Source: Amphiscolops sp. MND2022
Taxonomy: Eukaryota
Assembly (NCBI GenBank): GCA_964187785.1
Contig: OZ076409.1
Span: forward strand, 53,508,001 to 53,572,000
Direction of reading: 5' to 3'
Length of the DNA stretch: 64,000 nt
The position numbers were made by a program, and so were the translations under genes. The notes under the pieces are model-generated. The model saw only the letters and a program-made list of their open reading frames with translations, was not told where the DNA came from and searched no databases. Shown piece by piece: positions 1 to 50,713 of the stretch. The stretch's first letter is position 1. Each line of letters opens with the position of its first letter.

Positions 1-596
1 ACGATCAGATTAGTACAACTCTCTTGTTGGCTAGTGTCCTAGCACCTACTCACCCTCAAGGTCTATTCCCTGAGTTCCCTTTTTGTAGTAACCCTACTTG
101 TGCTCTCCTCATAAAGGGCAGTGCGAGTGACATAGAGTGCGCTCACAGAATAAAGTGCGGAGATTTCTTGAATAAATCTCCATAAAGCTCTGTTAGCGTG
201 CCAAAATCTTTCTGTTCATTCCAACCGCATAGCCTGTGGCTGGATAAAGCGTAGTTTAGTGTGAGTAACCTCTAATAGTACTTCAAAAAAAAAAACAAAA
301 AAAAAACTTAAAAGACTCATCTTTAACTTTTCGTAGGATAACTATCTCCAGTTAGTGGGGTAGCAAACCTTTCTGTTCTGATTAGTGGTGACTAGCACCA
401 GTGCATGTAATCTGAAGATTGTAGTTTGCAGGCCAACTTCATTCTACGTAGAACCTAGTAGGCAATTGCGAGCTGCAAGCTCAAGAACGTAGTGGTCCCA
501 TAGTTTAGTTTAAACCATAGTGAGGAAGCACATTAAAAACTTCCTATTTTTATTTGTCTTGCGCTTGACTTTGCACAAAGAAGGATAGGGTGAGTA

Positions 597-3500
597 ATGA
601 AAAAAGCCAAAGCCCTGTTCAAAAGCTGGGTTACCAGAGGAAACAGTAGTCAGAGCAGTCCATCGAGCATGAAATCAGGCGAGATTGAGTATCTGAAGTC
701 TTTGAATGAGTCGAACAGGCAGTCTAGTGGCTTCCACGCTACGAATCCATTTGCAAGCGATGTGGAGGAGTTATCTAGGCTTAGTGCACGTGCTGAGATA
801 GCAGCGGATGACATGATTGCAAACATGTTTTTATACGACGTCATGTCGGATAATGTGTCCATCGCTGATCAAAACTCGCAAATGGCATACTTCAGCCAAC
901 TAAACCACTCTCGGGCATCTTCCGATAGCGCTAACTTTGTAAATGGCACTGCCATGAACTGTGGTAACGTCTGGCCTCCCATGAACAACTCTGCGATTGA
1001 TTGGGGAGATTGGCCAAATTCGAATGGAGAACAAGCTAAAAGCTCGGACATCAGTAAATGGGTAGAGAACATGAATGCAGGCACGGCCTTCGGAGAGATT
1101 ACACCACAAATGAGTCTGGATGTGGACCCGCTGGGTTCCGGAGTTCCTGTGTTTGCTGCTAGTAGAAACGCCGTTGCTAACAAGACGGAAGGGTACATCA
1201 ATCAGGACAAAACGGAAACCTCAATCACATCAGTCAAGAGTTTAACTGAAAAGCTCATATCGGAAATGACTGCGATAATGGCGCAAAGAGATCAACAAGC
1301 CGATGAACGACTGACGCTCATTTCCGAAACTATGCATCGCAGAGACTTAGATGTCGACAAGCGCATGGTGGACCTCATGACTACAGTTCAAGAGTTGACC
1401 CTAGGGGTAAAAGCTGTAGTGGCGACGATACCAAGTCGTCCTTCACCTGTGCCGGTGGCACTAAATCCTGCGAACGCACCATCTGATAATGCATCTTCAA
1501 TTCAGCAACCCACCAATAGAGAAATAGTTCAGCGCCAGAGCAGGACGAAGCTCGACCAAAGAAACTTGAATCCAGAGACAGTAGAAGAGGCTGCAAAAGG
1601 CAATACACCGAACACAATACATGGGCAAATGTTAGCCGAAGCGATAACAACCGCGATGTCCAAAGGTTTGGAACCATTGCTAGCAGCAAAAGAAGCCAAA
1701 AATACACCAACCAAATACCGCGGTACGCGCGACGGGATAATAGATGGTTGGCTAATGCTCATGAAACGTTATCTGGAAAAAGCCCACTCAAAGGATACTT
1801 CGCTGGACAGAGCATGGACCATCGTGGAATTCTTAGAGAATGAGGCACAAGACTACATCATGAACAAATCCGAGGCTGAGCGCGACACGGATGAAAAAGT
1901 CTTTGCGCTACTAGCGCGTCGATTTGGAACCGGATCTAGTAAGTTCCAAATACAACAGCAGTTCCGTACACGCAATCAGTCCGACAACGAAGACTATATG
2001 CAATATCTTGACGCTCTTGAAGGTTTGCGCAGCCAAGGTTTTCCTAACGAGGACGTTACTGTAAGGCGTTACGAAATCATGCAGAGGTTCATTGAAGGGG
2101 TACGCAGCTTTGAGTTGAAGCGAAATCTCGCACTCATGTACGCACAAGAACAGTACGTGGATACACCTCCAACAGTGGAAGCACTACGGTTCACGGTACA
2201 ACAATACTTGCATATGCGCGGCCCCATCCGCTCTGAGAATTATCCAGCGCCTCAGCAACACCAAGAGCCGTTACTTGCTAGCCACCAAAACCCGATACCG
2301 GCAGCGGCTCCTCAAGCGCCTAATGGGCAGCTACCTCCACAGCCAGTGGCTGTTCGACAGCAACCACCGAAGCCATCTAGAGCGTGTGTCAATTCTGGCG
2401 ACCCGTCACATTTTGTTGTCAATTGCACTTTGAAAGATCGCGCACGCAAACCAATGCCTCAACTAGTTACCTCATGTCGAACAAACCCAGCTGGTGAATG
2501 GTCTTGTCCTTCTAACTCTCAGGGCATCAATAACGACGTTGTGCCTGCGGCACTACCAGCACAAGCACCGCCCACACTACGCGTCACTTTTGATTGCACG
2601 GGCAACACTGCATCCGACTGCATGGTGCCTGGAAATGCAGCAACAGAAGAACAAGTGAAAGCGGCGTGGTACGCCCCTGTCGCGAATTCCGCGGACATTA
2701 TTGATACTGATGATCAAATACGGGTGATCTCAATTTCAGAAGAAGGAGGCCCCTCACGTCCTGTGGTTGTGACTTGCGGTGAAAAACAAATCTTGACGAC
2801 GCTTGAAGCCCCAGCACCTGATTGTACTGAGACTTTAATTTCTATCCACTTGCTATTATCAGCAGAACAAAAAGCACGTCCAAACCTCACGTTGGCACAA
2901 CTAAAAGAGGAACTTTGCCGCAATACCAGTCTCACGATAGCTTCGAGACCCTTACCGCATTTTACTAGAGATGACGATACCAAGCTAGCCCAAATACACA
3001 AGGTTAAAACAATCGCGCCGGTCCCCATTGCTATCACGATTGATGGTGTCGACATGAAATTCGACGCGATTGTTGTCCTGGAAGGACACTTTCCGCAGGG
3101 ACTGTACTTGGGCAGGCAAGAACTGCGCTGTTATAACATCGGAGTGCAGGATGCACATGGAGAGGCCCAGATTGATGAGCGAGCCTCGCTAGTTGTTGCA
3201 TTCGGAACTCCTTTGCAAAAGCCGATACCACTCTTCGGCATGATAGACACCGGTTCGGGAGTCTCCATCCTCTCATTGAGCGCGTACAAGAAAATTGCAC
3301 CCCAGCATGAACTGAACCTGTCACCGTACGATCTTGAACTCTTCGCTGCCAATGGCAAGACCATCACCACCGTTGGAATAGCCGAAGACGTAAGCTTTCA
3401 GCTTGGCGGACATACTCTGAAGACCAACTTTGTAGTCATAGCCGATCACATTGGTTCAGAGGATTTTCTCCTGGGTCGGAACTTCTTGCGCACATACAAC

Positions 3501-6500
3501 GTGTTGGTGGACCTGGCTGCCATGAAAGTAACCATCCGAAACCCGAAAACGCCTAGGATCTTCAAAGCAGTTCATGAAGTCAGTGACCAAGAGCCATCGT
3601 TTGTTGTTTCTGCCGAAGAGGTTACTTTAGGGCCTTTCGAACGAAAAGTTGTGCGCGCGAAGATCATAACGCAGCAGCCCAACGAGTTTCATTTTCGTAA
3701 CGTAATGGTGCACCCATGTAGCATTAGGTCCAACTCATTGTTTGATTCAGAAGATACACTTACTTCCGTGGGAGAAGACGGTGTGGTTTTCTTAGCCCTA
3801 AGAAACCAAACTGCTAAAGAAGGGGTAAGAATCAAGGAACAAACCGTAATTGGGAAAGCGGTGCTCACCAATTTTGTGTTCAACTCCGTTCCCATTCAAG
3901 ACAGTCGTGAAGCTTCGAAGCTTTCAGCCGAATTTGTGAATCAAGTGCACAGAGACTTAGATTTGGACACGAGTTCAGAGTTTAGTTCCTTTGCACAGAA
4001 CTTTTTGTCTTCAACTGAGCCATCAGAGATGGGCCTATCGGAAAATGAAAAACGCAAAAGGACAGATCCACTATTGCTGAAGCCGATCCCAGGCCCCGAC
4101 CTCTCTTCCGTCCTTTCTTCTTGGGGGGAAGGGGCGAGAGACAAATTAGCGAGCGTTTTGAGTGAATACGATGACCTGTTCATGAAAAATAAATCCGACA
4201 TAGGACGATGCAAAATTGCGAAACATTGCATAGAGCTAGAGCCGGAGGCTATACCACACAGAGAAGGGGCAAGGCGCATGTCTCCCGACAAAGCAGCCAA
4301 AGCGAACCAAGAAGTGCAGAATTTGTTAGCTCTAGGTTTGATTCAACCCTCTTACTCGCCGTGGGCTAGTGGGATTGTCATGGTGAAAAAGAAATCAGGC
4401 GAGCTTCGCTTTTGCTGTGACTTCCGCCCGCTGAACGATATAACAGTGAAAGACGCGTTCCCACTGCCCAGGATTGATGAAAGTCTTTCAAGGATCGCGA
4501 ATGCAAAAATCTTTACGAGCATCGACTTAGCGTGGGCCTTTTGGCAGATTCCACTGAAGAAACGTGACCGCAGAAAGACCGCGTTCGCGTGCGAGCTTGG
4601 ACTGTTCGAATGGCGACGAATGCCCTTTGGGCTTTGCAATGCATCGGCCACATTTCAGCGGTCGATCACGAGAGCTCTTCAGAAGATTCAACAACGCCAT
4701 GGAAGTGTTGTCATGGCATACATTGACGACATAGTAATTGCCACCGAAACAATTGAAGATCATTTGGAGAGGATCAGAGAAGTGTTCGAGTGTCTCAGAG
4801 AGGCAGGTTTCAAGATGCGAGCCGAGAAGTGTGATTTCATGCGCACTGAAACCAAATACCTCGGACGGGTAGTCTCAGCCGAAGGCATAAAACCAGACCC
4901 GGCAGCTGTTAGCAAAATCCAAGAATGGATGCCTCCGAGAAATAAAGAAGAACTTCAAAGCTTCCTCGGATTTGCGAACTACTACCGGGACTTCATTCCT
5001 TTTCACGCTGCTAAGGTGCAACCTATGCAGGAGTTGTTAAGGAAGAACCAACACTTCTACTGGAAAGAAAAACATCAAGAAGCGTTTGACTCAGTGAAAC
5101 AGGCATTAGCCGATGCCACAGCTTTGGCAGCGCCAAACGAAGAAGGACGTTTTGTTTTGGACACAGATGCCAGTGCAGTTGCTATAGCCGGCATACTGCA
5201 CCAAGAACAACAATACAATGGGAAAACCATTCTTCGTCCCATCGTTTATGGCAGCAAGTCACTGACTCGAACACAAATGAATTATGGCGCCCCGAAGCTG
5301 GAAATGTATGCAGTATTCTATTTTATCGAGAAGTTTCATTCCTACCTTGCAGGTCGGGAATTCACGCTGCGCGTGGACAACCAGGCTCTCTCATGGCTGA
5401 AGACATATTCAATGGATCAGGCCATGATTGGACGCTGGATTGCGCGCCTCGACCAATATCACTTCAAGACGATCCACAGACCACGCACGCAACACAGAAA
5501 TGCAGACGGTCTTAGCAAAAGGACCAATGACTACGTGCATCGGGAGAAGATTGTGGAAGCTCTACCAGAAGTGAGCAAGGGATTCAGCTTCATGTCCCAG
5601 AAAGACTACGAAGAACTCCCCACTGTGCCATATATTGACAAACATGGAAAATTCATTCCAAACCATCCGGAGCTTCCACCCGAAGCTCGAGCACAACTCC
5701 CCGTGCTGTACATTTTGAAAAAGCCACCAAAGGAGGATCTAACCTCAGATCCGTCTTTGAGTTCCATACCATGGTACCCACAGGTGCAATGGGAAACGAC
5801 TCCGACATCAACTGAAAACGACAGACCAAATTGTATCCTTAGCGTAACAACCAAAGTGCCAGCGGCACGTCTCGACACCACCAAACGTGACCCAGCGTTG
5901 CGTAGATTGCCGACGCAGTGTCAAGAACAAGCTGACGTCCTTAGGCTAGTTGGGACTGAGCTGCACGAGCATCAGTCGACAATGCGCGGATTGAAGGATC
6001 TACATTTAGCTCAAAACAGAGATGTACACCTTCTAGCGCTGAAGAAACTCATGAAGAACGAGCCATTGGATGACACCTTGTTCCCCGAGGACGTGCAGGA
6101 CTTTGCCAAGCGATACTATCATCAGAAAAAAGACCTACTGTTCTTGAACCAAAATGACATTTTATGTGTCAATTACATTCCGCAGCAACGCGCGATGCAC
6201 GTACGACCGTGTATGATCGTCATGCCCCAGTTGTATCAACATGAAATCTTGTACAGAGCGCATGATGAGTCAGGACACCAAGGCGTAGGCAAAGTGTTAG
6301 CAAGAATACAAGAGCGCCACACTTGGCCAGGCATCAAGCGTGATGTAGTCAACCACATTAAGCATTGCTTAACATGCCAACAGACGAAGCATCCCGCTGG
6401 GAACCCTTGTTATCCGTTGCAGAGTATCAACAGCAGCAATTTTAATGACCTGGTGCAATTTGACCATTTGAAATTGTGCAAGACAACGTCAGGAAATAAT

Positions 6501-9500
6501 GGATTGCTAGTCATCATCGACCATTTCACCAAATTTGCAGAGGCAATCCCATGTGCACATGATGAATACGACGCCCAGACGACTGCAAAGATTATCCTGA
6601 ACAAATGGTTTGCGAGACATGGCACTCCTGCCAGGATGCAGTCAGATAATGCCACCAACTTCACTGCCGAAATTGCTCAAGAATTGATGAAAGCTTCGCA
6701 AGTAACCAAGGTAACGTCCACTCCAGCTCATCCTAGAGGCAACGGTTTAGTAGAACGCCAGAACCGAACATTGCTCACCTTGCTCCGAGTCTATACGTCA
6801 CGCAGGATGCTTGACTGGGATGAGCACATAGACGGAGTCTTAGGTGCCTACAATTCGACCAGACATGCGACAACCGGATTTTCCCCGTACATGCTCCAAC
6901 ATGGCGCAGAAAAATCCATTCCGCTCTCGTTCATATACCCAGAATTCGCAGCGCGAGAGTTTGAATCCAAAGAAGAATTTGTAGAGCACCTGCTTGCTAG
7001 ACAACAAGAAATCCACGAGCTTGTCCGCCGAAATACTCATCAAGCGCAGGTACGACAAAAACAGAAGTTCGACAGGCATTTGAAGGCAAAAGCTCATGCC
7101 GTGGGTGATGCCGTTTGGGTTTTCTGCCACATAATTCCCAAGGGTGGTACCCGCAAACTTCTTCGCGCCTGGCGTGGACCTCACAAGGTCACAGATGTGT
7201 TACAAGACGGAAGACTATATGTTTTGGATACAGGTCAAAAAGTCCATTTCGAGCGCCTGAAGAAGCATGTGCCAGCACCGTGGGATTGGGCAGCACATCA
7301 ACCCTTCGGGTTAGACCAAAATGTAGCCATCATTGCAGATCCATATGTGGAAGAAAGTAATGAGGAAATAACATCAGACATCTCGCGAGACTCCTTTCTT
7401 CCAGAACAACTGCCGGAGGCATCGTTCGAAATGGAACCAACCGCGCCTGTCCCGCCACGCACAATTCAGACACGTACTCAGTCTGCATTGGAACAAGGAA
7501 TCCCACGTAGACGCTTCAGTCACTTTGGATATCCATCTGAGTCCGAATCTGACCAAGAACCAGTAGAGCAACCCATTGAAGAAACCCAGCAACCAATGGT
7601 TTGTCCTGAGATTGACGACCTCGAACCACTGTACTCCGATCAAGAGGAAGTCTTGCCTGAACCAGCACCAAGTCTGGTACCCTCGCCATCAGGAACTTCA
7701 GCACCATTGCTTTCCAACCCGGCTTTAACCGATACATTGAGTAATTTTCCACTGTTCAGTTCTCGAGCTGGTAGCTCGGTAGAACTAGAACTTGCCGAGG
7801 AAGCCGAACCCCAAGAAGGAACTGGTGGAGAAACTCAAGAACCCGGTCAAAGCATGGAAACATTACCCTCATCAGGGAGAACTGCAACTAAAAGAGGCAG
7901 ACCAAGAGGCAGACCTCCAGGTCGTAGAAGAGGAAGTACCACTTCATCAAGCAGAGCACTCACAAGGGCACACAGACCATACACTAGATCAAGAGGCCGA
8001 GTAAGAACCAGAGCTCAATCTCAAACTTTGGAACGTGCAATGACACTACCCAACATAGCGGAAAGCATATCTCCAGAGCAACGAGAAGCTGAGCAACCAA
8101 CCCCTTCACAAGCCCCACCTTATCAGCTACGACGCAATAGAGCACCACGATACAGGTGTGGAACCTGCGGTTCCCGTAACTGTAGTTGCCTCAACCTAAT
8201 CAGGAGAAGACCACCGGACAAGCGATTGGCCCGGGGAGTGGACGCTCCTGCCACAGACTCAGCTGACACCGAAGCAATTGAAGACCACATGCAACACACA
8301 ATCCGGTCCATACAGGCTAAGGACCAGGATATACCACAAGTACATCATATCGTCATAACAACAGAGAAAACCTACTCGAGCATTGGACCAGGTGTGGTTC
8401 CACCCTTGGAAACCACACTAAGAGCCATGCAAGAAACATCGTCCTCAGACTGTCCCACCTACCGATTTAAGGAGTGGACGTGGCAAGAAAAGAGTGGATT
8501 GGAATTCACACTGGCTGCCATCATACCCCCACTCCCACCATCGATGGTGTTTGGAAAACTAGAGCCAGAAGACACGAAAGTAGCAATGGTACGCTGTATC
8601 ACCGCGCAGAAGCTATGGCAACAATATGGTGTGACTTCCCCCCCTGGAGATGTGTATCACCCAACGGCTGGTTGGTGGCTATTAGTCACCTCCTTGGACG
8701 AAACATCACCAGTGAATCCAGGAACTCTATTGATTTGCTTGGAGAACTTGCGTACACTTGTAGAGTTCGAGGACACACTTTGTTTTCATCTAGCAGATAT
8801 CTATCGCGGGAAATTCCTTAGTCAACATTGGTTACAGCTACTAGCTATCACTTTCTGTCGGCAAACTAAAATACGCCTGTTGGACAAATACACGTATGCG
8901 TTCGAGAACCCAGTGACCGTGCTAGAAGCACTCTCCGTAGTTCATGATTGGTCTTGCACAAATTTGGGAGACCGACCTTTACGCAGAACAGTGTGGCAAG
9001 ACCATAAAGCTATACTGGATCATCTCACACCAAATCAAGACAATCAAAGCACCGTCACGGGAAAACTGTTGACAACACACCCGAAGGTCAAACCGAATTA
9101 TCTGTCATGGATTTCCTACGAGGAAACTGACATTCTGCAAGCCCGGGATACCGTGGCAATATGTTGTCCGGCTGACCTGCTGTCATACTCAGCAATGGCG
9201 CGTTATGTCATTCGGGAATATGGCCAGGAAGAGATCTTCCGGCTACGTCCAGCCGTGGGAAAGGCCGTACATCTCACCAGATCACCATCAGCGCCGTGGA
9301 ACAACGAGATGTTTTTGTTAGTCACCAGAGCCTCTAGTAAACACCCTATTTTACATGATGTGCTACATCTGTGCCTGACAGACCTGGTGCAGAAGCTCGA
9401 GCGAGCACAAATCACCCGAATACATCTGCCTATTTATGACCCCGAAAGGTCTATCAACATGCTACCAGCTTGGTATTCAATGTTGAGAGATCATTTCATT

Positions 9501-9593
9501 GATTCCAGCGTCGACATAGTTCTGCATGATCGGGTATATGTGTCGATAGCACTGGTCAGAAAACACCTCAATCAACTGAAGCCCAAAGCTTGA
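597..9593 (+). CDS. Ty3/Gypsy gag-pol polyprotein (Gag, protease, RT, RNase H, integrase, long C-terminal extension with macrodomain-like region)
   Basis: Uninterrupted 2998-aa ORF. Protease IDTGS (nt ~3246) ending in FLLGRNFL. RT motifs SPWASGIVMV, RFCCDFRPLN, MPFGL and YIDD (~4719). RNase H TDAS (~5160). Integrase H-x4-H...CxxC (~6260-6380) and SDNA. Domain order PR-RT-RH-IN is Gypsy-type. Confidence 0.97.
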   Translation: MKKAKALFKSWVTRGNSSQSSPSSMKSGEIEYLKSLNESNRQSSGFHATNPFASDVEELSRLSARAEIAADDMIANMFLYDVMSDNVSIADQNSQMAYFSQLNHSRASSDSANFVNGTAMNCGNVWPPMNNSAIDWGDWPNSNGEQAKSSDISKWVENMNAGTAFGEITPQMSLDVDPLGSGVPVFAASRNAVANKTEGYINQDKTETSITSVKSLTEKLISEMTAIMAQRDQQADERLTLISETMHRRDLDVDKRMVDLMTTVQELTLGVKAVVATIPSRPSPVPVALNPANAPSDNASSIQQPTNREIVQRQSRTKLDQRNLNPETVEEAAKGNTPNTIHGQMLAEAITTAMSKGLEPLLAAKEAKNTPTKYRGTRDGIIDGWLMLMKRYLEKAHSKDTSLDRAWTIVEFLENEAQDYIMNKSEAERDTDEKVFALLARRFGTGSSKFQIQQQFRTRNQSDNEDYMQYLDALEGLRSQGFPNEDVTVRRYEIMQRFIEGVRSFELKRNLALMYAQEQYVDTPPTVEALRFTVQQYLHMRGPIRSENYPAPQQHQEPLLASHQNPIPAAAPQAPNGQLPPQPVAVRQQPPKPSRACVNSGDPSHFVVNCTLKDRARKPMPQLVTSCRTNPAGEWSCPSNSQGINNDVVPAALPAQAPPTLRVTFDCTGNTASDCMVPGNAATEEQVKAAWYAPVANSADIIDTDDQIRVISISEEGGPSRPVVVTCGEKQILTTLEAPAPDCTETLISIHLLLSAEQKARPNLTLAQLKEELCRNTSLTIASRPLPHFTRDDDTKLAQIHKVKTIAPVPIAITIDGVDMKFDAIVVLEGHFPQGLYLGRQELRCYNIGVQDAHGEAQIDERASLVVAFGTPLQKPIPLFGMIDTGSGVSILSLSAYKKIAPQHELNLSPYDLELFAANGKTITTVGIAEDVSFQLGGHTLKTNFVVIADHIGSEDFLLGRNFLRTYNVLVDLAAMKVTIRNPKTPRIFKAVHEVSDQEPSFVVSAEEVTLGPFERKVVRAKIITQQPNEFHFRNVMVHPCSIRSNSLFDSEDTLTSVGEDGVVFLALRNQTAKEGVRIKEQTVIGKAVLTNFVFNSVPIQDSREASKLSAEFVNQVHRDLDLDTSSEFSSFAQNFLSSTEPSEMGLSENEKRKRTDPLLLKPIPGPDLSSVLSSWGEGARDKLASVLSEYDDLFMKNKSDIGRCKIAKHCIELEPEAIPHREGARRMSPDKAAKANQEVQNLLALGLIQPSYSPWASGIVMVKKKSGELRFCCDFRPLNDITVKDAFPLPRIDESLSRIANAKIFTSIDLAWAFWQIPLKKRDRRKTAFACELGLFEWRRMPFGLCNASATFQRSITRALQKIQQRHGSVVMAYIDDIVIATETIEDHLERIREVFECLREAGFKMRAEKCDFMRTETKYLGRVVSAEGIKPDPAAVSKIQEWMPPRNKEELQSFLGFANYYRDFIPFHAAKVQPMQELLRKNQHFYWKEKHQEAFDSVKQALADATALAAPNEEGRFVLDTDASAVAIAGILHQEQQYNGKTILRPIVYGSKSLTRTQMNYGAPKLEMYAVFYFIEKFHSYLAGREFTLRVDNQALSWLKTYSMDQAMIGRWIARLDQYHFKTIHRPRTQHRNADGLSKRTNDYVHREKIVEALPEVSKGFSFMSQKDYEELPTVPYIDKHGKFIPNHPELPPEARAQLPVLYILKKPPKEDLTSDPSLSSIPWYPQVQWETTPTSTENDRPNCILSVTTKVPAARLDTTKRDPALRRLPTQCQEQADVLRLVGTELHEHQSTMRGLKDLHLAQNRDVHLLALKKLMKNEPLDDTLFPEDVQDFAKRYYHQKKDLLFLNQNDILCVNYIPQQRAMHVRPCMIVMPQLYQHEILYRAHDESGHQGVGKVLARIQERHTWPGIKRDVVNHIKHCLTCQQTKHPAGNPCYPLQSINSSNFNDLVQFDHLKLCKTTSGNNGLLVIIDHFTKFAEAIPCAHDEYDAQTTAKIILNKWFARHGTPARMQSDNATNFTAEIAQELMKASQVTKVTSTPAHPRGNGLVERQNRTLLTLLRVYTSRRMLDWDEHIDGVLGAYNSTRHATTGFSPYMLQHGAEKSIPLSFIYPEFAAREFESKEEFVEHLLARQQEIHELVRRNTHQAQVRQKQKFDRHLKAKAHAVGDAVWVFCHIIPKGGTRKLLRAWRGPHKVTDVLQDGRLYVLDTGQKVHFERLKKHVPAPWDWAAHQPFGLDQNVAIIADPYVEESNEEITSDISRDSFLPEQLPEASFEMEPTAPVPPRTIQTRTQSALEQGIPRRRFSHFGYPSESESDQEPVEQPIEETQQPMVCPEIDDLEPLYSDQEEVLPEPAPSLVPSPSGTSAPLLSNPALTDTLSNFPLFSSRAGSSVELELAEEAEPQEGTGGETQEPGQSMETLPSSGRTATKRGRPRGRPPGRRRGSTTSSSRALTRAHRPYTRSRGRVRTRAQSQTLERAMTLPNIAESISPEQREAEQPTPSQAPPYQLRRNRAPRYRCGTCGSRNCSCLNLIRRRPPDKRLARGVDAPATDSADTEAIEDHMQHTIRSIQAKDQDIPQVHHIVITTEKTYSSIGPGVVPPLETTLRAMQETSSSDCPTYRFKEWTWQEKSGLEFTLAAIIPPLPPSMVFGKLEPEDTKVAMVRCITAQKLWQQYGVTSPPGDVYHPTAGWWLLVTSLDETSPVNPGTLLICLENLRTLVEFEDTLCFHLADIYRGKFLSQHWLQLLAITFCRQTKIRLLDKYTYAFENPVTVLEALSVVHDWSCTNLGDRPLRRTVWQDHKAILDHLTPNQDNQSTVTGKLLTTHPKVKPNYLSWISYEETDILQARDTVAICCPADLLSYSAMARYVIREYGQEEIFRLRPAVGKAVHLTRSPSAPWNNEMFLLVTRASSKHPILHDVLHLCLTDLVQKLERAQITRIHLPIYDPERSINMLPAWYSMLRDHFIDSSVDIVLHDRVYVSIALVRKHLNQLKPKA

Positions 9594-10877
9594 CTGAGTC
9601 CCTGTGGCACTATGGAACAGCCATTCGAAAGGCCACTCGCCTTCTTTTAAGCCTATGTGTCGTTTTAACCAATTGATAGATGTTTCTTAATGCGGATTGT
9701 GAATATTGTTTTATTAGTTGTCCCCTCAACGTTTGAGTATATTGTTCGCGTTCATTCAAAAAATGTTTTAAATCTACGACTGCTCCCCGTCTTTCAATTA
9801 TGTCCTATTTCGCTATACTTCCGCGGTATCAGATCATCATCCCAATTACATCCTCGCAACATCCTCAGATTGTACCCCAGGTGCTAAATGCTAACGCAGT
9901 ATGCTATTGTTTCTTGTTTGTACACAGTGCAATAATCTTTCACTTGGTTGAGAGAGCTACCATGCAGCATCCCGAGCAATGTGGATCCAACTGACAACGA
10001 CAAGAAACTGATATAGTAGTCCTCAGATCACCGTCGACCAACTGCTGTTATCAACTATGGAATGGTGAAGCCGTACATGACAGAAGACGAATATAAAGTC
10101 AAATTTAGTGGTGTTCGAACCACCAGATTCCAAACGATTGATTCAGTCTGTGATTGGTACGAAGCACCCAATACGGAACCGGTTCCAGAAACTATCACGT
10201 ATTTGTAATCTGAATAGCGTTATATGTCCCAGCCACATGGTTGTTGGCTTCAGAAATGTTGGTTCTGCACTTCATACACTTGAGTAGATGATGAGTGAAC
10301 TCCTAGAATTCAAGATGGGCGCAGTACCTGAAATGGATCCCAAACAAGCACCAGAACACAATGGACTGAATGGACTCTCGATGATTTTCTTTGATGTGTT
10401 ATATGCTGTGTTTCTATATTGGAGCTGTTCATTTGGCAATGTAACGCTTTGATTACACCCGATTCAAGTGCTATTATGCATTTTGTAGTACCCTACCTGG
10501 TAGGTGGGTCCCAACTTGGTGCCTCCCCGCCCGAAATAAAAGAAAAACTGCAATCGGAATTCTTGCAACCATGCTTTCTTGCAAATTTTTGGAATGCCGC
10601 GTACATTACCACCCCTTAGAAGAAGTTTTAAACTAGCTTGGAACGAATAGAAAGAGTTTTTAGAAAAATTGATTTTTATCTTCTGGAATGTTAAGAAATA
10701 AGTGCTACAAAAACAGTGCAGGAGACTTTTGCAAAAACAAAATATTTCGAAAATAGTGTAAAAATTTTGTGTAGTAAGATCCAACGTAAAGAATTGAAAC
10801 AATGTTGCTAAGGACCCGCTGGGTATGTATCATTCTCTCTCGTTTGCCGAGGACGACAAACTACGGCCCGGGGAGGA

Positions 10878-11599
10878 TGTAACGTCCAGCAAAAGTCGTT
10901 ATATCAATTTTTGAAAATTTCGTTCAAATTCAAAAAGTGTGCGATATCAAATAAGAGCATTCAAAATGGCTGACCTAGCAGGTCCCCAAAAAAAGGACAA
11001 AAAAGAGCCGAAAAAAGCCCGAGAACCCCGAAAAAACCTTGAAATCCCAGAGGACAGTGCCAGAGACCCCAGAAGAACTGAGAACTGCCACAAAAACGCG
11101 GTTTTGTGCCATCTATCCCAGAAAATGACCCAGAAGAAAGAAGTATCTTTTCGAAGGTTGCCCAAAGAACCCTGAAGACTGGATACAAACCCCGAATGTG
11201 ATAAATTCAGTTTATTTAGATGTTTTTGATGTTGTTTAGCAGATTTGCGATGATAGTGGATCTACTAGATCCCTATTTTGGTGGATTTAGAACTTATTCC
11301 CCCAATAAAATGTGTTTCAGCTAGACCCTGTTTTTGGACCTCGGAGGTATGTAGGAACACGCAGGAACATTAGGAATTGTTTTTACAGGCTTGTGGGACG
11401 TGTCCGGACTTGGAGTGTGCCGGCACGTCGCCACGGAGCTCTAATATGAGGAGTCTCCACGGCGTTTTGGAAAAGTCCCTACTGAGACCATTTTGGGACT
11501 AAAAACTGATGTTTAGGTTGTAGTAAGGCACTGGTCTCTTGTTCAAGCAACCTGGGCATTGTCCCAGTTCTAGAATGTAGCTGTTAGCTTGACGTTACA
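10878..11599 (+). repeat. 3' LTR (722 bp)
   Basis: Starts TGTAACGTC directly after the PPT and ends GACGTTACA, a perfect 9-bp terminal inverted repeat. Confidence 0.85.
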
Positions 11600-24473: not shown

Positions 24474-25281
24474 ATCAAAACAAGTATCCGATAAATGAAA
24501 AAAATATATATTTGCGCTACATTGCTGCAAAACTGAATGCTCAAAATCAGCGTTCAGGAATAATAACATAAGCTGGCGAAATTGGTTTGAAAATGACTGA
24601 AGTGTAATACATTTGACTATGAAAATATGAATAAATAATCATTTGATCATACAGGTGCAGGTTTTGATAAGGTCGGTAAATAGTTGAAGTTTCGGTTAAG
24701 TAGAATAAGTAGTTTTGGTTCTGGTGATATTCGAATACTTCATAACAACTCGATCCATGAAGCAGGTAATTATGTTGATAATAGTTAAGGGTAGGGTTAA
24801 CCTTGATAATAGAGTAATTACCAAAATTTGGTTTGAGCCAATAAACGTAACAGCAAGCTACTATTCGATATTAGTGATATGTCAGCAGTGTCAAAACCTT
24901 AAATAATTTTCAAAATTAAAACTCATGTGTAATGTTTTCCAATGTAAAAAACTGATTAAGATAAATTTAAAACCGCTGAATGTCTAACTGAGGAAACGTA
25001 GAATGTCAATAAATGTACACACCAAACAATTCCTAGTTTTTTCTCGAATAAAAAATTCAAAGCAATTAGATTATGGTTCAAAGTTGACAGGTATTATTTT
25101 GCTTGCTTCAACTTCGCTTGAACAGAATAGATTTGAATTTGAAATTGTTAGTTTTTTTGTGAAAACTATCAAATTGGAACGTGTCCCTCAATTCTCCTTT
25201 TGAAATAGAAAACGCTTTTGCTATAGAATATCTCACGCTTTGTCGTTTCAACCACTCAACTATGCATTATATGAGCTACTA

Positions 25282-25999
25282 CCCAGTGTAAAATATCTTG
25301 AAACTCTTGGCAAGATCTTGGATTTTCCCGCAAATTCCCGTTACCTCTTGAAACCCTTGATAAGATCTTGTTTATTCTTGCTTGACACAAAACTCTTGAA
25401 ATTCTTGATAGGAATCTTGGTAAGAGTCTTATCAAGAGTGTCAAGAAAATAAATTGTAAATCAAACAGTAATTTTGTTTACAAATACTTCGCTGTTGTTC
25501 GCGCTACCAGCTACACAATCATTCTATGAAGTATTGGATATAGGACAACACAAAGTAGTGAAATTCAGAACGTGATAGCTTGGTTGGTAGCGCGAACAGC
25601 CGTGGTAGAATAGGTACGCTGATCAAGCCGAAGTTGGCGTGGGTTTTTGTTTGTTTTCATTCAAGCTTTTGTTAGCTTTTCTCTTGAAACTCTTGGCAAG
25701 ATTCTTGGCATTTCTTGCATTTTCCCGGATTCTTGGCAAGATTCTTGGCGTTTCTTGGATTTTCTTGGATTTCTTGACAAGATTCTTGGTTTTTCCTGGA
25801 AGGTTTTTTGTACTAAAAACACTTTTGCTGCGTTTTTTCAGTCGAAAAAAATAGGCATTTTTCTTGAAGTTCTTGGCAAGATCTTGCAAGATCGTACATA
25901 TTCTTGGCGCTCTTGGTAAGAATCTTGCCAAGATTCTTACCAAGGGTTTCAAGAATATGCAAGATTCTTGGCAAGAGTTTCAAGATATTTTACACTAGG
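25282..25999. mobile_element. CACTA/EnSpm-like MITE
   Basis: TIRs CCCAGTGTAAAATATCTTG...CAAGATATTTTACACTAGG, 2-bp TSD TA, CTTG/CAAG subterminal repeats; homologous to 29567-30107 in inverted orientation. Confidence 0.88.
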
Positions 26000-27369
26000 T
26001 AATAGAACATCGGCCCACAATTTCTTTGAGTTACTCATTGATTATAAAAGTTCGCAAAAACGTTCGCAGAGATTTCAGACGCATTTCCTATGGTCGTTTT
26101 TATTCGGTGCTATACGAAATAGAAAAATACTGATAAATTGGCTTTTCGTTGACTCCTTATTCGAAAATTTACTCGAAATTGCCATAAAGCGTTCCCCTTT
26201 TTGAATATGCTTGAACTTTTTACATGTACTTTAATGTTGCCAGCAACTTTTATTATGATAATCTAAATATCTTACGGAAACTTTAATGCGTTAAAATTTC
26301 CCTGTTGTCGCCAACTTTTATCAAGCTGCTTTAAAGAATCATCAAAGTTTTGGCGGCAATTTCAAGCCGTGAAGTTCTGCAGGTTTCAATATGCATCAGT
26401 TCTAATTTTAAATGCAGATGAGACCTCAACAATTTTGCCGCCATTTTAACGCAAGTTAATTTCATTCACAATGTAAACAGCAAACTAGCGTCATCTTCAG
26501 CGTCCTACTTGAGACGCGGTGATTAAATCCGATGAGTATTTGAGAAATCAATGTGTGAATACAACGTGATCGTGTCCGTAAAAGAAGCGTGAAATATTTT
26601 CAAATTTGATTGCAGTAGTGGAAAATGCAGTGTAACTCTACAAGATTTACCACCGGAACCTTACTGAATTTTCTAGGTTTTATGAAAAATTACGCTGCAT
26701 GCAGGCCTGCAGCATGTAAAAAGTTCCAGCAGTCTCAACTAGGGTCCGCAAAGTTTTACAATTTCGCCCAAGATCTAAAAAAATCGAAGCGGCCAAAGAT
26801 CCTCTTTGAAAAGGATTAATCTTTAGTTAATCTAAAAACTGTATGAGACAAAAATATTCCTTTGGAATTTTTCGACGCTTTCCCACGTTTTCAAAAAATT
26901 TTCTCTCACCAAAACCGATCCGGGTTTGCTTAAAAGGTTTAAAATGTACGCACTAAATATGGTAAAATATATATCTTTACACACATTCCATTGAACTTTT
27001 TGCTCGGATGTTTATGACAAGTGGAACAGTTTTATATCAAAATTAGTAGTTTGATAACTGAAGTGGAAACTGGAATTGCGGTTCAAAGGCGCACATATGT
27101 TGATTGTGAGAAATATTTGCAAACTGTTGGCAGTCTGTCTAAAAAAAATCAGTGAAATTAGTCACGATGGTTTTCCTCAAGGCCACCGGAGTGTCAGCAA
27201 ACAAACAAAAAACTAAGAACAATTTAGTGCTTCCGACATCAGGAGCCCCTCAAAAAGAGACTTCAACAAAAGGGGCTCCGAAACCAGAAATCTTGTTTGA
27301 ATGGAATCATTATGCTATTTTTCTCTGAAAATTCAAAGTTCAAAATCAGATAAGTTAGTATTTCAGTAC

Positions 27370-27685
27370 CTTTCCGTTACACTAACTTCGTTTTTGTAGA
27401 AATTTCAATTGAAATCAAAAATCCAATTTAACAAAGTATTTGATCGTTTCGGATAGAACACTATCCAAGTTGGCCCTTACAACACTACTATGACACTTTT
27501 TTTCTAAAATTGTAGGATATTGGTAAATACCAATATCCTACAATTTTAGAAAAAAAAAGTGTCATAGTAGTGTTGTAAGGGCCAACTTGGATAGTGTTCT
27601 ATCCGAAACGATCAAATACTTTGTTAAATTGGATTTTTGATTTCAATTGAAATTTCTACAAAAACGAAGTTAGTGTAACGGAAAG
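27370..27685. repeat. Near-perfect palindrome, 156/158-bp arms and a 2-nt spacer
   Basis: 27370-27525 is the reverse complement of 27528-27685; the only difference seen is T7 versus A9. Confidence 0.97.
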
Positions 27686-29566
27686 TGTTAACAATCATCA
27701 GCCTCCACAGGTTTAAACAGTTAGTTTTTGTAGGTTGTCCAGCAATTTTATTATGACTTTATAAAACTCGCACGGAAAACTGCATTAAAATATCCATGTT
27801 AATATTGAGTTCTGTTAAGATACCTAAAAGATTCATCCGAAATTTGGCGGCAATTCGGATTTCTTGTTATTTAACTTTTCTTGTTGGATTGAAATTGTAG
27901 ACGCTGCATTGTAATCTGGCAAAAATTTTCCATTCAAGCTTTCGAAATTTTCAGTAAGCTTCTAGTAGTAAATCTTGTAGGATTACACAGCAGTTTACAC
28001 TACTGTCATTAAAATAAAAACCGTTTTCCATTTCGCTACCGACACATTCACGTTGTATTCAATTTAATTTCTCAACTACAGTTCTGTGATCAAAGAATGG
28101 GCCCCTAAGTGATAATAATGTTTGGAACATATAATTTTCTGCCCGATTCTGAGAGATTTTTGATATTCAAGAGAAAAAATTTTGATAAAAGTTTCTTGAA
28201 CTTTAATCTAGTTTACACTCGTGTGTTTAAAACTTTTGACAAATTTTGGGGAAATTAGCACTCATCACCTCTCTATGTAATACTTGGTTTGCAAACAAAG
28301 TTTTCTATTTTTGTCTATTTTACAAACATTTTATTTTGATTAGTCTTTGTTATCAGTCGGTTCATCGCTGTCCCCTGATTGCACTGTTAAACTTTGGGGC
28401 ACACGTCTGAAGGAAATCGATAATCTCTATTGGATTAATCTCGGTACATGTATCAAGATTGGGTATAGATTTAGGACCTATAGATTTGTGATTATCTTTT
28501 TACATGTACACTCTCGGGTACTAAAAATTTTCGAGTATTATTAAAGAATGACGGGCACCTTGAACAATATGGCAAAGTAAATAATGACCAGCTTCTGCTC
28601 CTAATTTCGAATCTGCCATTGAATTCCAAAGTTTTTCATGTGAAAAATAACTTTGCAAATTTGTCTTATAGTAGTTTCAAAGTTTTCAAAACTAGAGGTA
28701 TGTAAACTAGGCAAAATTCCAAAACAAATGTTTCTGTGAATTTTTGGAAAACTTTTCGCAACTCATTAGACGTTTTAAATTTAATCGCCAAACAGGGGTT
28801 CCATTCTTTTGTCACGGGACTGTGGTCATCTGATGTAATCACTTCTCAATTACCACGCTGAGGATGACGCCAGTTTGCAGTTTACAGCGTGACTGAAGTT
28901 ACTCAACATTGAAGTGGCGTTGAACTTTAAGGTTGCAACCAAGCAGCTTGACAAAATTTGAATACGACAAAGGAACTATTCTCGCATGAAGGTTTCCGTA
29001 ACAGAAAATTAAAAACGTTTCGGGCAACTTTGAAGAATATGTAAAAAGTTCGTCCAATTTCAACAAGGATAATGCTTCATTATTGGCTTGCGGTGATTTA
29101 TATGCGGAAAAATCGTTGTTGAGTTCTAAATATGGCTTCTCCATGAATCCGTTTTTCAGATCACATGCTATAAACGCTATTTTATTTCCCTACAATTAAT
29201 TATTTTCCAAATACCCAAATAGATCTACTTTCAGCTGTTCAAATACATTCGATGTAGTTTTGTTAATTTCTAAAATCCCCCCAAATCTTTCCGAGATCAT
29301 CTTGGATGTTATTCGTTCGGATTCTATTCATAGTTCCTTTTATTCCAGCGGATGAGCGGAACTTACACGAACAAAAGCGATTTCATGAGCTACCATTACC
29401 AAACCAGATGTAACACGTTGTTTTTCGCAAAAGTGTATTCGAATGATTTTCAGTGGATGAAGCTGAATGAAACCGTTCAAACTCTTGAATCGTTTTCAGC
29501 TACATCTAATCGAAAACTAGAAGATGAAATGACCAATTTTGAAATCTCGAATTACTTTGCTGCATG

Positions 29567-30107
29567 CCCAGTGTAAAAATTCTTGCAACTCTTGATAAGA
29601 ATCTTGGATATTCCTGATTTTCTTGGTAAGAATCTTGCCAAGATTCTTACCAAAAAATCCACGATTTTGCAAGATCTTGCAAGATCGTGCCAAGAAATTC
29701 AAGAGATGAACTGACAAAAGTGAATGAAAACAAACAAAAACCGACGCCAACTGCAGCTTGATCAGCGTACCTATTATGCCGCAGCCTTTCGCGCTACCAA
29801 CCAAGCTATCACGTTCTGAATTTCCCTACTTTGTGTTGTCCTATGTTTAATACTTCAAAGAATGATAGTGTAGCTGGTAGTGCGAACAACAGCAAAAAAC
29901 TTGTAAACAAAATTAATGTTTGTTTTACAACTTTATTCATTCTCTTGACACTCTTGATAAGACTCTTACCAAGAAAACTATCAAGAAATTCAAGAGGTTT
30001 GTGTGAAGCAAGAATAAACAAGATCTTATCAAGAGTTTCAAGAGTAAACGGGAATATGTAAGAATATGCAAGATCTTGGCAAGAGTTCCAAGATTTTTTA
30101 CACTGGG
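29567..30107. mobile_element. CACTA/EnSpm-like MITE inserted after the duplication
   Basis: CCCAGTGTAAAAA...TTTTTACACTGGG. The empty site in copy B (GCATGATGACG, ~36601) shows a 2-bp TSD of TG. Confidence 0.92.
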
Positions 30108-30801
30108 TGATGACGCACAGTAAAAGTGAACTCAGCCATTCCAGTTTAGTAGACTCTAGCTTTCAAAATGGCCTTTCGCGTGCATCTTTAGAGCAAAATT
30201 CCCCGTGAAATAGGGTTGGTGACAGAATTCCAATGCTTGCAGCGAAATCTATTGAAACGTGCAGCGGAATCAAAGGCTAGTTTGAAAGATTTGTAGGAAG
30301 ACTTCGCGGCATCCGCTAAAACTGTGACAGCAGCGAAGTCCGCCGAAAACTCTAAAAAACACACATTGCCACAGAAAAAGCGAAAGATTTCTTGAATGCA
30401 TTTTGACGGGCTATTGTTGTCATCAAAGGTATGCCCAAATTTGTTATTCAGGTTTGTCAAAGATTAGATTTACACTGGCGAAAGTGAGGCACTCTCAAAA
30501 AATTCCAGCGTGGCAAAATCACTGGTATTTCCAATTTTTGCATTGACGCGGCAGCAAGCAGCAAAACAGTAGTGATCTTCTGTTAGTTTTCTGCAAAAGT
30601 TATTCTGTTTGTGATAACGTTCGTTCCAATGGTTTCGGAATAATGTAATACCAAAAATAGGCCGTTGCGGGCAATTGTATTATTTCTGCGTTTAGGCTTT
30701 CTTCCTAAATCGGTGTTTTGGGATCTGCTGAGCTCTCCCTTATGTGGCGATCTCGGTTACTCTGATTTGAAATCAGTCTGTGGCAATTTTACCGTGTTTT
30801 A

Positions 30802-31120
30802 CTACTTCAGGGCGCCTGTGTAGCCCACTGGACCGCATGTCCATTTAACATTAAACCTGTTTTCATGCGTCCCATGACAATTTTGATGCGTCGGATGATC
30901 TTTCTCGGCTCTTTCTAAGTTTATAGCTTGTAAAACTTGAGAATTCAGATCCAATTTGATATCACCAAGATTTTTTGACATTTGACTTGCAATTTCGCAA
31001 TTTATCCTTCTCGAAGTCTCTACAGTGATTTCACTTATTTCCCTGCTATTAGTGTTAAACAAAGCTAAAAAACCTTCAACTATGGGATATACAATTTGCT
31101 CTAGCTCATCGGACTCAAGG
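30802..31120 (-). pseudogene. Degenerate coding remnant, possibly a retroelement gag N-terminus (second copy at 37294-37617)
   Basis: Amphipathic helical peptide EISEITVETSRRINCEIASQMSKNLGDIKSDLNSQVLQAIN in both duplicate copies; no diagnostic motif. Confidence 0.3.
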
Positions 31121-31247
31121 TCCTTATCTCCTTTTCTTTCGTTCTGGGGTTTAAATATTCAATCAGTTTCCTAACATTACATCCAGATTCTCTAAATCGA
31201 ACATAGCGTCCGATTGCACAGGGTGCTTTTCCTTCGCTCTCTCCTTT

Positions 31248-31768
31248 TTAGTCGGCGCCTTTTCCCTTAAGGAAAAAAGCCCGACTCTTACAGTGAGTAG
31301 TTTTTTTTTCAGTTGACAATCTCACTCTGAGTGGTCCACTTTTCTTACAATTTGTTCATCTTTCATATTTGTTCATCTTCCATCTTCGACCCAGCCGGAG
31401 TGCGTGGGTTCGATTCTCGCACTAAACCATAAATTTTTTAATGCTTCCAAAAGTACAGGTGAGACCAAAGGGCCCCCCCTTTGGGTTTTTTTCGGCACTA
31501 TGTGACTTTTTTCGAAAATTTTTGAAATTTATCAAAGGGTACCCCCTTGCATTTTTTTTGAAATTTTCGGTTTGTAGAAAACGTTGAATGAGCCTGAATG
31601 GCCTTTTTTGAGTTTTTCGGCATTTTGCGACTTAAAAAATACTTTTTTTCGAAAAAAATTTCAAAAATAATTTTTTTGAAAAATTTTTTTTCCAAATTTT
31701 TACAATAGTTGTTCCTTGAATATTTTTGAGCCTAAGATATGGCGCCGACTTGGGACGTTCCCGTCTTG
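31248..31768 (+). mobile_element. Helentron-associated element inserted after the duplication
   Basis: Perfect sub-TIRs AGTCGGCGCC (31250) and GGCGCCGACT (31741), a 3' stem-loop, and insertion into a T-run without TSD. Copy B has the empty site CTCCTTTTTTGTTG (~37733). Confidence 0.88.
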
Positions 31769-32896
31769 TTTGTTGAAAGCATTTGATGATTTTAGTGCAC
31801 CTTCGAGAATAAATTGATGAGCAGTATTAAGTCACAAACGTTAGCAGAGGCCTTATAACTGAGAAAGAGAGAGGAATGAGTGTGAAACGCATTAGTATTA
31901 AGTAGGAAGGTGTCTCCTCTTTCTGAGGGACCCACTGTATATACAAAAATATAAATGACTCGCAAAATTCAAAATTTCAGCTTGTCATAAAGGCGGTGAA
32001 AAAACATTCCTGAAGGGATAAAGTCACTATTACGTTACCCTGAATTCAAGCTAAAAATAGCACCCTGAAAGCAAATCAAAGGAAGTATGAAGAGACAAGA
32101 GAGGGGAAAGGCGGCATATTTTTTAAGTTCTATTTATTATTTACGCACGTGGCAACGCGTGTAGTAGAATCTACGAATTGGTAGTACAAATGGCCACATC
32201 ATCTAGCGATTTGGTTGGCTGTTAACAACATTGAAGGACCGCGCGTCTTTCAGCTAGAGTAAAACCTTACTTGTACGCGTTTTCATTAAAGTTATTTGCT
32301 TGCTATGGCTTATTGCTATTACTGCGCTTTGCATGTTTCAACAAGTAAAAATTACTGGTTCATATGCCCATCATTTTATTACATTTAAATGAATGACTAA
32401 CTTATTATAAAGCAACAGAAAACTACTCTTGAATGTAAAAAGATCAAATAACAATGATATATCAGGGAGAATGTTTCGTGCATTGACCTTGGGTTTTTAT
32501 TAGTTCCTAGCGGCAATACTCCTAGTGGCAATATGAATAAAAACCACCCGTTAGCTTCATCTGAATGACTCGGCGTACCAGAGCAAAAGTAAAACTGAAT
32601 TGTCGCCGGCAGCTCGAGATACTCACGTTGAAACTCACTGCTGCATCAAATATGTGTATGTTTTCGAGAAAAATTCGAATCATGAAGCAAATCGGCTGCC
32701 AAAATCTTGTCAGTCCGGTTTCTATCTTCTTCCTGTTTCCACAGAAATGATTGATTCTTTAATTTTTCTGAGTTTTAGGTTATCATTATTTCCGTTTGTG
32801 TTTCCATATGATTTTTCCAATTTCCTGGTTGAAATTCACAATGGATAGTGAAAAATGTTTTTACAAGTTTGAATATAGTAGACAAACAAAATGACA

Positions 32897-33165
32897 AACA
32901 AGACGCCCGCTCAGCACCAGGGTACTTTTCGCCAATAACGCATCAGCCCGGGTTCGAACCCACGACCTCGTGTCTGCCAGTTCAAGTAACTAAAATAGTC
33001 AAAAACTAAATAAAATAGTCAAGTAGTGGGAGATTGTTGGGAGTCATGGAGATGAGCAAACTAGGTTGGGAGTCATGGAGAGCGCGGAGATTTTGCAGAA
33101 TTTGCAAAAAGCGCAACACAGATCATGATTTTCCTCCCCCATTTTATGTGGGCGGAAACTAAAAA
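32897..33165 (-). mobile_element. Helentron-associated element, second family, containing a tRNA 3'-half-like segment (also at 38700-38971)
   Basis: Minus strand reads TTTTTAGTTTCCGCC...GTGGGTTCGAACCCGG...GGCGAAAAGT...GTCTTGTT. Confidence 0.6.
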
Positions 33166-34981
33166 TTTCTGTATAAAGGGTTAATCGAATTCTACTAATC
33201 GCGTTCCAACAAATATCACGATGCCCATAATTTTTTTTTGGTGTACTCTAGTTATTACATTTTGGCTAGGTTTTGGTTCTTATTGTCCATATTTTTAAAT
33301 AGGAAAAAACTACTAAATGGGACTCGTTTTTGTTCAAAAATCACCACGTTATATTGTCATGACCAAGTTGAAGGGGTTCTCTCATAGAATTAATTTGACA
33401 TAAATTTTGTTAGGTGTATATGTATTGTTACAGCTTTTTGAACTCTTTTGGTTCAATCCAAAACGGCTCCAAAATAATATTCCTAAGTACCCCCAAAGTC
33501 AAAAATTTCCATAAATCTAAATTTTCATGCGTTTTCAAAATTTCATGCGTTTTTTGAATAGCTTTTGAATATTTCCGTTGATGGAAAATCCCGAACAATT
33601 CAACACGATTTAACCCACCATCCAAGACTTTAAAGACTCTTTTGATTTTTTTACTACAAGTTTTAGTCAGGTTTCAATCATTTTCATGGGCTAGAATATC
33701 CAAAGTGTTCCAATATGAAACAAGCATCTGTCTAAGATGAATGTGAAAAGTTCCCTTGAAAAACTGCCTCAAAATGATCACTAATTATCTAAAAAGTCAC
33801 AAAACTGTGCAATTTTTAACATTTTAAAGCAAAGTCATGTTGTGGTTACCTTAGGCACATTCTGTGAATTTTTCGAACGTTTTGAAAAATTCAAACACCC
33901 ACAGATGGTAACGACGAAGCAAAAAGTCATCTCGCACTCTTTCGCGACGAGTCATTTGCAATTTATGCATAATTAAGTGCCTCAAATTGACACCAAAAAA
34001 GAACGTTTATAAACAATTCACAAACTTTTCACTATCGAGTAGCTTTTTTGTACTGTCATTGAATGATTTTGAGGAAAACATCCAAAGAGTCCAACAATGA
34101 CACAGTAATCTATCCAACTCGAGTTTTAAAAAACAAATTTGATGTTCTCAGTTCAAGGTTTGACTGTTTCGAAATTTTACGTTGAATTTGCACATGAATA
34201 TCTCTAGATTTTGAAACATTCATTGCTTTTGGAGACCATTTTTTGAAATCAGGTGTTTGTTATCTGAACTTTAAGATGCTCAACAAAAGAAATTTGGTTC
34301 CAAATATTCCGACACTGTGAAAACGTTCAGAGGTGATGTGATTGTCTACAGTAGCGGAAAATAGTTTTGAAAATTATTGGCCAAATCATAGAGATCCAAA
34401 ATCAGAAACTCATCGTTGTACATCTATCTATACCCCAATTACTGGTTTGTATCTGTTAAGATCGCCAGATATAAAATTATAACGATAAAGCATACGGATT
34501 TTTTATTCAATCATAACGTATGTGATTCTCAAATGTAATGCATTACGATACATATGGCGCAAAAGTGGAATTTATCATCAAAAGAAAAATGTATTTTCCG
34601 TAAAACGGGAACGAACCGTATTCTAGTCAAACAGTGCAATGTGTTCATCGTGAATTTTGATGCACAGTGTAATCAGAAATTGCGGAGTTTGGTCATTGAG
34701 CGTAATTAGAGAAAAGTGGAAACCAGTCAAGAATTTCAACCTACAATTGGCTCAATTCCATATTCATCTAGGGTGGTAATACGAAACTCATGTGTTTTAC
34801 AGTTCAACCAACTGCGAGGTTGAAATTATTGAAATGCGGAAAAACACAAAACTGTCTTCTGTTTCGGGTAATATCACTAAGTAAACCAAGAGCAGTTCAG
34901 TTGACTGTACCGAAGTTGAGACTGATAGAACTTTTCACATGCTGCATGGCTGTATGCTGGGGTTACTTTTTGTGAAGCCTA

Positions 34982-50500: not shown

Positions 50501-50713
50501 TGAAGAGGAATTGTTTGGTATGGTTAAATATCCAGGAAAGTCGGGCACTTTTGTATTTTGTTTCTTCGTCTCCGTGACGCAGGAGATCTGCACGCTGTTT
50601 GTTACCATATATTGGTGGACGATTTCATAGGAATGCTTTGAAAGTCCATTTATGTTGACCGTCATCGCTTTTAAGGATTTGTGATGTGTTGAGAGTGTTC
50701 GGTGGTCCGTCAT
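47520..50713 (-). pseudogene. LINE ORF2 (AP endonuclease and RT), disrupted
   Basis: Endonuclease motifs NINGL, VTET, GDFNARH, IDL and GHYPV; RT motifs DLEKAFD, GLPQGSILSP and YADD. In-frame TGA at 48530, a further frameshift near 48000, and a C-terminal PLCIC...HFIFYC motif. Confidence 0.92.

Follow-up and report, generated by a model that had tools for sequence, protein, structure and literature searches.

Two tandem TARG1-like macrodomains, likely pseudo-enzymatic, follow the integrase of an Amphiscolops Gypsy retrotransposon

The stretch of Amphiscolops sp. MND2022 DNA analysed here (64,000 nucleotides; assembly GCA_964187785.1, contig OZ076409.1, positions 53,508,001 to 53,572,000; hereafter the window, to which coordinates without prefix refer) holds a Gypsy long terminal repeat (LTR) retrotransposon that is young, recently active and abundant. 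Its single gag-pol open reading frame (ORF; 594..9593, plus strand) runs without interruption over 2,999 amino acids from stop to stop, with the first ATG at 597, and ends in two macrodomains related to human TARG1, which we call M1 (about 8517..8894, plus strand) and M2 (about 9099..9545, plus strand). Judged from their alignment to active relatives, both are likely to be pseudo-enzymes and not, like TARG1, erasers of ADP-ribose.

Results

Structure searches, a family profile and the residue register agree on the identity of M2. An AlphaFold2 model spanning window 8100-9590, built from an alignment of 49 rows, has a mean pLDDT of 73 and contains two ordered domains; as a Foldseek query it returned human TARG1 at ranks 1-8 throughout (E 1e-8 to 3e-7). 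A wide VIA-align search with M2 placed TARG1 (Z 16.9), DarG, Q8A8B0 and Poa1p on top, and alignment to 4j5r gave Z 18.1 with a root-mean-square deviation (rmsd) of 2.0 over 137 residues. Identity between M2 and human TARG1 is about 17%, and a 19-row family profile matches human TARG1 at E 1.2e-14; it includes distant homologues drawn from a search of 1.84 billion proteins (233 matches at E<=0.001). We conclude that M2 is an ALC1-like/TARG1-class minimal macrodomain, nearest to TARG1, DarG and Poa1. Other searches were less telling: Pfam Macro was absent from 20 members of the first family alignment and present in 1 of 19 members of the later one (E 0.3), a single-sequence search of the PDB with the tail found nothing relevant, narrow profiles gave either no match or TARG1 only at E ~1, and ESM Atlas offered a weak macro lead for the tail (0.85).

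A conserved C-terminal extension of M2 (window 9525-9560), where the model is of low confidence, lies outside the TARG1 fold and is retained even in distant members, as is a conserved motif immediately 5' of M2; both are possible docking strands. The distant homologues P0272, P0339 and P0313 had no match in the source genome at strict thresholds, and a metagenome scan gave no gene context for P0285.

M1 is a shortened macrodomain in which the diphosphate-binding loop and the following helix are missing; it has shed some 9 residues at that loop and some 15 beyond. On profile evidence M1 is to be regarded as homologous to M2, and we accept this homology because an M2-only profile and its shuffle control decide it, beyond the weak structure evidence. 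The profile was made from M2 columns with the window row omitted and was run on 11 polyproteins: L038, which carries a single macrodomain, and 10 with tandem domains, mutually related and hence not independent tests. It scores M1 in register in all 10 tandem polyproteins (9.5-18.5 bits), and outside M1 only M2 itself and the L038 macrodomain exceed 3 bits. None of 100 column-shuffled profiles reaches the 12.4 bits of the window M1, the best scoring 1.1 in the window protein and 5.0 anywhere. In a wide VIA-align search with M1 against 48,161 chains, all 7 matches at Z>=5 are macrodomain folds, led by DarG, Q8A8B0, Poa1p and TARG1 at Z 6.6-7.0, although Z 7 is inside the background range of the tool; Foldseek with M1 modelled separately found TARG1 only at E 0.5-0.9.

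An unrooted 26-row tree splits M1 and M2 from 10 other TARG1-like domains borne by transposable elements (TEs) at 100/100. This fits an origin of the pair by duplication within the clade, in a tree that is unrooted and has long branches. An earlier note on this DNA, made from the letters alone, had claimed a TARG1-like macrodomain at the polyprotein end and probably a second, more eroded one upstream. The tail motifs that it quoted are present in the translation, the AlphaFold and Foldseek check that it proposed puts human TARG1 first for M2, in agreement with VIA-align and the 19-row profile, and the profile match to M1 bears out the second domain. A zf-RVT lead for M1 from ESM Atlas was dropped, its recognition being low (1812) and the fold and profile results contradicting it. 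The AlphaFold2 model also shows an ordered strand, helix and hairpin preceding M1 (8337..8516, plus strand; model residues 80-142).

How much of the ADP-ribose pocket is left? We counted residues in 81 non-redundant M2 homologues, taken from the 177 rows, out of 306 hits, that reached a coverage of 70% or more, in a register set by profile alignment to human TARG1, whose numbering agrees with the available text of PMC5928194 (G43/I44/G123) and PMC9967889 (K84/D125). The catalytic lysine at K84 is replaced by Arg in 77 of 81 and kept in 1, Asp is not among the residues listed for them at the D125 position, and this double loss holds clade-wide. Glu occupies the G123 position in 61 (Gly in 5), Asp the G121 position in 70, and Ala the G43 position in 67 (Gly in 1), while Gly is not among the residues listed for the 81 homologues at G41. 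The window M2 itself has Arg at K84 (nt 9327), Glu at G123 (nt 9444), Ser at D125 (nt 9450) and Tyr/Ala at G41/G43. Loss of the glycine-rich loops, another claim of the note, is seen both in this alignment and in the loop deletion of M1, so that the glycines admitting the diphosphate (G43, G123) are replaced in M2 and the loop is gone from M1. In human TARG1, as reported in the part of PMC5928194 available, G123E and G43E do away with both ADP-ribose binding and catalytic activity but leave the protein able to bind RNA, and K84A is inactive according to the accessible part of PMC8501950. Read from the alignment, canonical ADP-ribose binding or hydrolysis by these domains is quite improbable, and we consider them likely pseudo-enzymes because K84 and D125 are lost, G123 is Glu and the M1 loop is absent.

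On substitution patterns, both macrodomains are nonetheless judged to be under purifying selection. The ratio of nonsynonymous to synonymous substitution rates (dN/dS) was computed pairwise against 20 copies picked because their open frames are long; since these copies share ancestry and were selected, the values are not independent and are biased downward. M1 gave 0.05-0.14 in 18 informative copies, the other 2 being nearly identical to the window there, and M2 gave 0.06-0.10 in 18 copies and 0.18 in 2, at dS of up to 0.95. These values are comparable to those of the protease (0.05-0.09 in diverged copies), whereas RT (reverse transcriptase) and integrase lie below them, mostly at 0.01-0.03. 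Sister families, in which synonymous sites are saturated, keep both domains in frame, with identities to the window element of 82% in RT, 67-68% in integrase, 44-49% in M1 and 39-43% in M2; one of them likewise runs to 150 near-identical copies or more. Among 30 longer proteins newly found, every complete or near-complete M2 match also has M1. Neither absence from sister copies nor neutral evolution, which would have told against the note, was seen.

In two of the 20 copies (L040, L041) only M2 departs appreciably from the window copy (dS 0.27), the remainder being near-identical, which suggests that recombination exchanged M2 alone. In the sister family with a 3,292-aa frame and at least 150 copies, a second ORF of 1,281 aa (L151:1-3844, minus strand) follows the macrodomains, esterase-like by eye; Pfam found nothing in it and the PDB search no meaningful match. 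The window element has no such second ORF.

Upstream of the tail, Pfam matches follow in the Gypsy order PR-RT-RH-IN, all on the plus strand: an aspartic protease (3177..3542, aa 862-983; RVP_2/Asp_protease_2, under curated cut-offs), RT (4383..4865; PF00078, E 2e-36), RNase H (5061..5459; PF17919/PF17917) and integrase (6225..7193; H2C2 and core, PF17921 and PF00665) with a motif at 7170 that we take to be GPY/F-like. In the polyprotein tail Pfam found nothing at E<=1, chromodomain included. A polypurine tract (10870..10877, plus strand) stands immediately 5' of the 3' LTR (10878..11599, plus strand), and the 5' LTR lies outside the window at G000:C1:53504824-53505545, about 3.2 kb 5' of the window; the two are direct repeats of 722 bp, TG...CA, 100% identical and accompanied by a 3-bp target duplication, the features of a Gypsy element. 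Full frame and identical LTRs agree with the note, which had called the element intact. When the last 167 aa were searched against the genome, all 150 candidates scored out of 3,491 matched at 86% identity or more; there are hence at least 150 close copies, and by our count 41 of those scored lie in frames of at least 2,990 aa. From the stop codon to the 3' LTR, the plus strand holds no further ORF of 90 aa or more. The leader of about 3 kb between the 5' LTR and the frame (G000:C1:53505546-53508593) is without long ORFs, and in both families compared a putative primer-binding site follows the LTR end at a distance of about 16 nt.

Between integrase and M1, two overlapping GRP motifs (7890..7922, plus strand; pattern GRP[RKP]) sit in a basic patch with a net charge of +17 over 51 aa. 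The pattern is confined to this linker in all 10 tandem elements and absent from L038; we presume the motifs to be AT-hook-like, and Pfam has no match to them. A CxxCx4CxC motif (8157..8189, plus strand), conserved in 9 of 10 tandem elements, is a possible zinc site and may bind metal. The polyprotein also contains a low-complexity linker of about 300 aa.

Target-site duplications (TSDs) of Gypsy elements are usually 4-6 bp. Apart from the window copy, 16 of the 19 copies with both ends located have 3 bp, 1 has 6 bp and 2 have none (sample L111-L150, L152-L174 and window 10878-11599; 1 of 20 copies lacked the 5' end), and of 8 sister-family copies examined, 6 have intact ends and 4 of these likewise show 3 bp. 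The Troyka group of Gypsy elements in Repbase presumably shares the 3-bp TSD, and we liken it to the window clade by that trait alone.

Many other families of this genome, recovered by a Pfam Macro search and its follow-up, carry one TARG1-like domain. At 20 further loci (L091-L110), intact-looking to eroded, it occupies four positions: after the integrase, past RNase H but ahead of the integrase (L100), N-terminal to RT (L101), and within an upstream ORF of about 835 aa that has no RT or integrase matches (L103, L110). In L038, L100, L101 and L103 the domain lies within a Gypsy polyprotein, as in the window element, but it is single and mostly has K84 and the GxG loop, often also D125; the domain of L035 matches human TARG1 at E 5e-24. 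The RT of L038 is only 22% identical to that of the window element, and the macrodomain tree and the RT tree each set the window clade on a branch by itself (one incomplete row left out; branches long). K84 and D125 have been lost independently of the window clade in L091 and L097. Close to the 5' end of the intact-macrodomain family lies an antisense ORF of 329 aa (L038:3-989, minus strand) that is JmjC-like by eye. Host macrodomain exons occur at L031-L033, which fits an animal host; one of them, macroH2A-like, adjoins an H2A-like exon.

Elsewhere in the window lie a broken long interspersed nuclear element with endonuclease and RT (47900-51680, minus strand), fragments of another Gypsy element (53265-54917, plus strand), and long inverted repeats separated by about 4 kb, together with a direct duplication of about 6 kb (25271-30108 and 28059-40491).

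Discussion

The window domains share with human TARG1 (OARD1, C6orf130; 4J5R, 4J5S, 2LGR), of the ALC1-like class with DarG, Poa1p and SCO6735, the same minimal fold and detectable sequence homology; they differ from it in being tandem and fused to an integrase, and in having K84, D125 and the loop glycines replaced, with Glu at G123. A viral polyprotein with a tandem macrodomain pair is known from coronaviruses: in nsp3, neither SUD-N nor SUD-M binds ADP-ribose, according to the available text of PMC2674928. This likeness is an analogy only: SUD belongs to an RNA virus and by our searches does not derive from TARG1 (Z 4.7-7.3), and its surfaces are basic and bind G-quadruplexes, whereas the window M2 is near neutral. 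Chromoviruses such as MAGGY, like the window element, have an accessory domain at the integrase C-terminus, but theirs is a chromodomain, while the ordered tail here is macrodomain. MAGGY targets H3K9me regions (bioRxiv 10.1101/2021.11.30.470311, as far as available). The earlier note had likened the place of the macrodomains to that of the chromodomain; the position is indeed the same, but this genome has several further Gypsy families whose TARG1-like domain also follows the integrase.

What might such a tail do? A possible account, which we put forward tentatively and rate a little below even, is that the two conserved, catalytically depleted macrodomains, predicted not to bind ADP-ribose, tether the integration complex to chromatin or to a host partner. 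A Gypsy clade would have captured a TARG1-type domain, which would then have been duplicated within the clade and had its pocket blocked; the tail would remain attached to the integrase and, jointly with the AT-hook-like and four-Cys motifs, might bind DNA, chromatin or protein. There is precedent for such a change of ligand in the two SARS-unique macrodomains, which bind other ligands in place of ADP-ribose (PMC2674928, available in part).

Several observations weigh against this account. The flanks of 41 insertions have no common sequence and an ordinary GC content (0.36), so that no sequence targeting is visible; integration targeting as proposed in the earlier note finds no support in them. 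The net charge of M2 is -1 to -3, as against +4 to +15 in 18 of 21 other TE macrodomains, and direct binding of nucleic acid by M2 is therefore not favoured. The protease could cut the 300-aa linker and release the tail from the integrase. For M1, the separate model, from a less diverse alignment of 37 rows, is of low confidence (pLDDT 46), and direct hhalign comparison with M2 is marginal (score 22.2, equalled by at least 1 of 40 shuffles); hhalign of M1 against an intact L034-type domain was not significant. For M2, blockage of the pocket appears probable from the alignment register rather than from model coordinates, a few distant members retain Gly at G123, and Asp is retained in 65 of 81 homologues at D37 and in 65 of 81 at what we take to be D20. 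Finally, SCO6735 hydrolyses without either catalytic residue of the Lys/acid pair (PMC7050489, accessible part), so that loss of the motif is no proof of inactivity.

Release by the protease leads to another explanation, in which the free tail would be a non-catalytic adaptor or decoy, in the manner of coronavirus SUD, with element RNA, the particle or a host factor of defence or translation as its ligand; we consider it unlikely. Besides the long low-complexity linker, it can draw on the faster divergence of the macrodomains between families (39-49% identity) than of integrase or RT, and on the exchange of M2 alone in 2 of 20 copies; yet no cleavage site was identified, the presumed AT-hook-like motifs point to DNA, and at the domain level dN/dS is low throughout and gives no hint of an arms race. 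Pocket-dead TARG1 still binds RNA (PMC5928194) and SUD sets a precedent (PMC2674928), as the available parts of these papers indicate, and a SUD-Paip1 structure is among the fold matches. More improbable still is that M2 reads or removes ADP-ribose by an altered mechanism, countering host ADP-ribosylation or homing to ADP-ribosylated chromatin. The complete TARG1 geometry, the retained Asp residues, the nearly invariant basic residue at K84 and the intact-looking domains of other Gypsy families in this genome would suit such a function, as would the mechanistic diversity of the class, exemplified in the accessible parts of PMC9967889 (DarG) and PMC7050489 (SCO6735). The Glu at G123, the near-complete loss of Gly at G43 and G41, the effect of G43E and G123E on TARG1 binding (PMC5928194, available part) and the missing loop of M1 stand against it. 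The note had left the choice between an ADP-ribose-binding and a pseudo-enzymatic module; the latter has held, while binding, like a hydrolase-type role against PARP, is weakened by the same replacements together with the loss of K84 and D125. That the domains are a decaying, functionless relic of an old capture would accord with the vanished catalytic residues and the lack of a Pfam match, but it is very improbable and, on the sequence comparisons, largely refuted by dN/dS of 0.05-0.18 (a ratio biased down by the choice of copies for long frames), by retention in frame across several families with saturated synonymous sites, and by substitutions fixed clade-wide.

The tethering account can be taken further, to a version that we find rather doubtful: the clade would have captured a host TARG1, duplicated it and plugged its pocket, and the pair would be a new reader of chromatin borne by the integrase, matching with macrodomains what chromoviruses do with a chromodomain and resembling coronavirus SUD by convergence. 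Such a reader may be linked to the 3-bp integration geometry of the clade.

Macrodomains in retroelements are known: fish epsilon-like endogenous retroviruses have them, as additional ORFs (Basta et al. 2009, cited in PMC4977317, available in part), and LTR elements are known to capture accessory ORFs (PMC5408684, available part). In the literature searched, to which Repbase, GyDB, CDD, subscription papers and supplements did not belong, we found no TARG1-like or tandem pocket-blocked macrodomains in Gypsy elements; annotations in Repbase, GyDB and CDD may already record such domains. Within that literature, what is new is the tandem, pocket-blocked form on a Gypsy integrase tail.

In conclusion, the TARG1 domains that retrotransposons carry in this one genome form a series in which some look intact, others are partly eroded and the window tandem has its pocket blocked. 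The series suggests that mobile elements have drawn on ADP-ribose machinery repeatedly. The series is a natural set in which to ask whether hosts use ADP-ribosylation against such elements, and what role a macrodomain takes on after ADP-ribose is lost. Should the tail prove to be a tether, it would be an accessory module of a kind new to integrases, and the family that carries it numbers 150 close copies or more.

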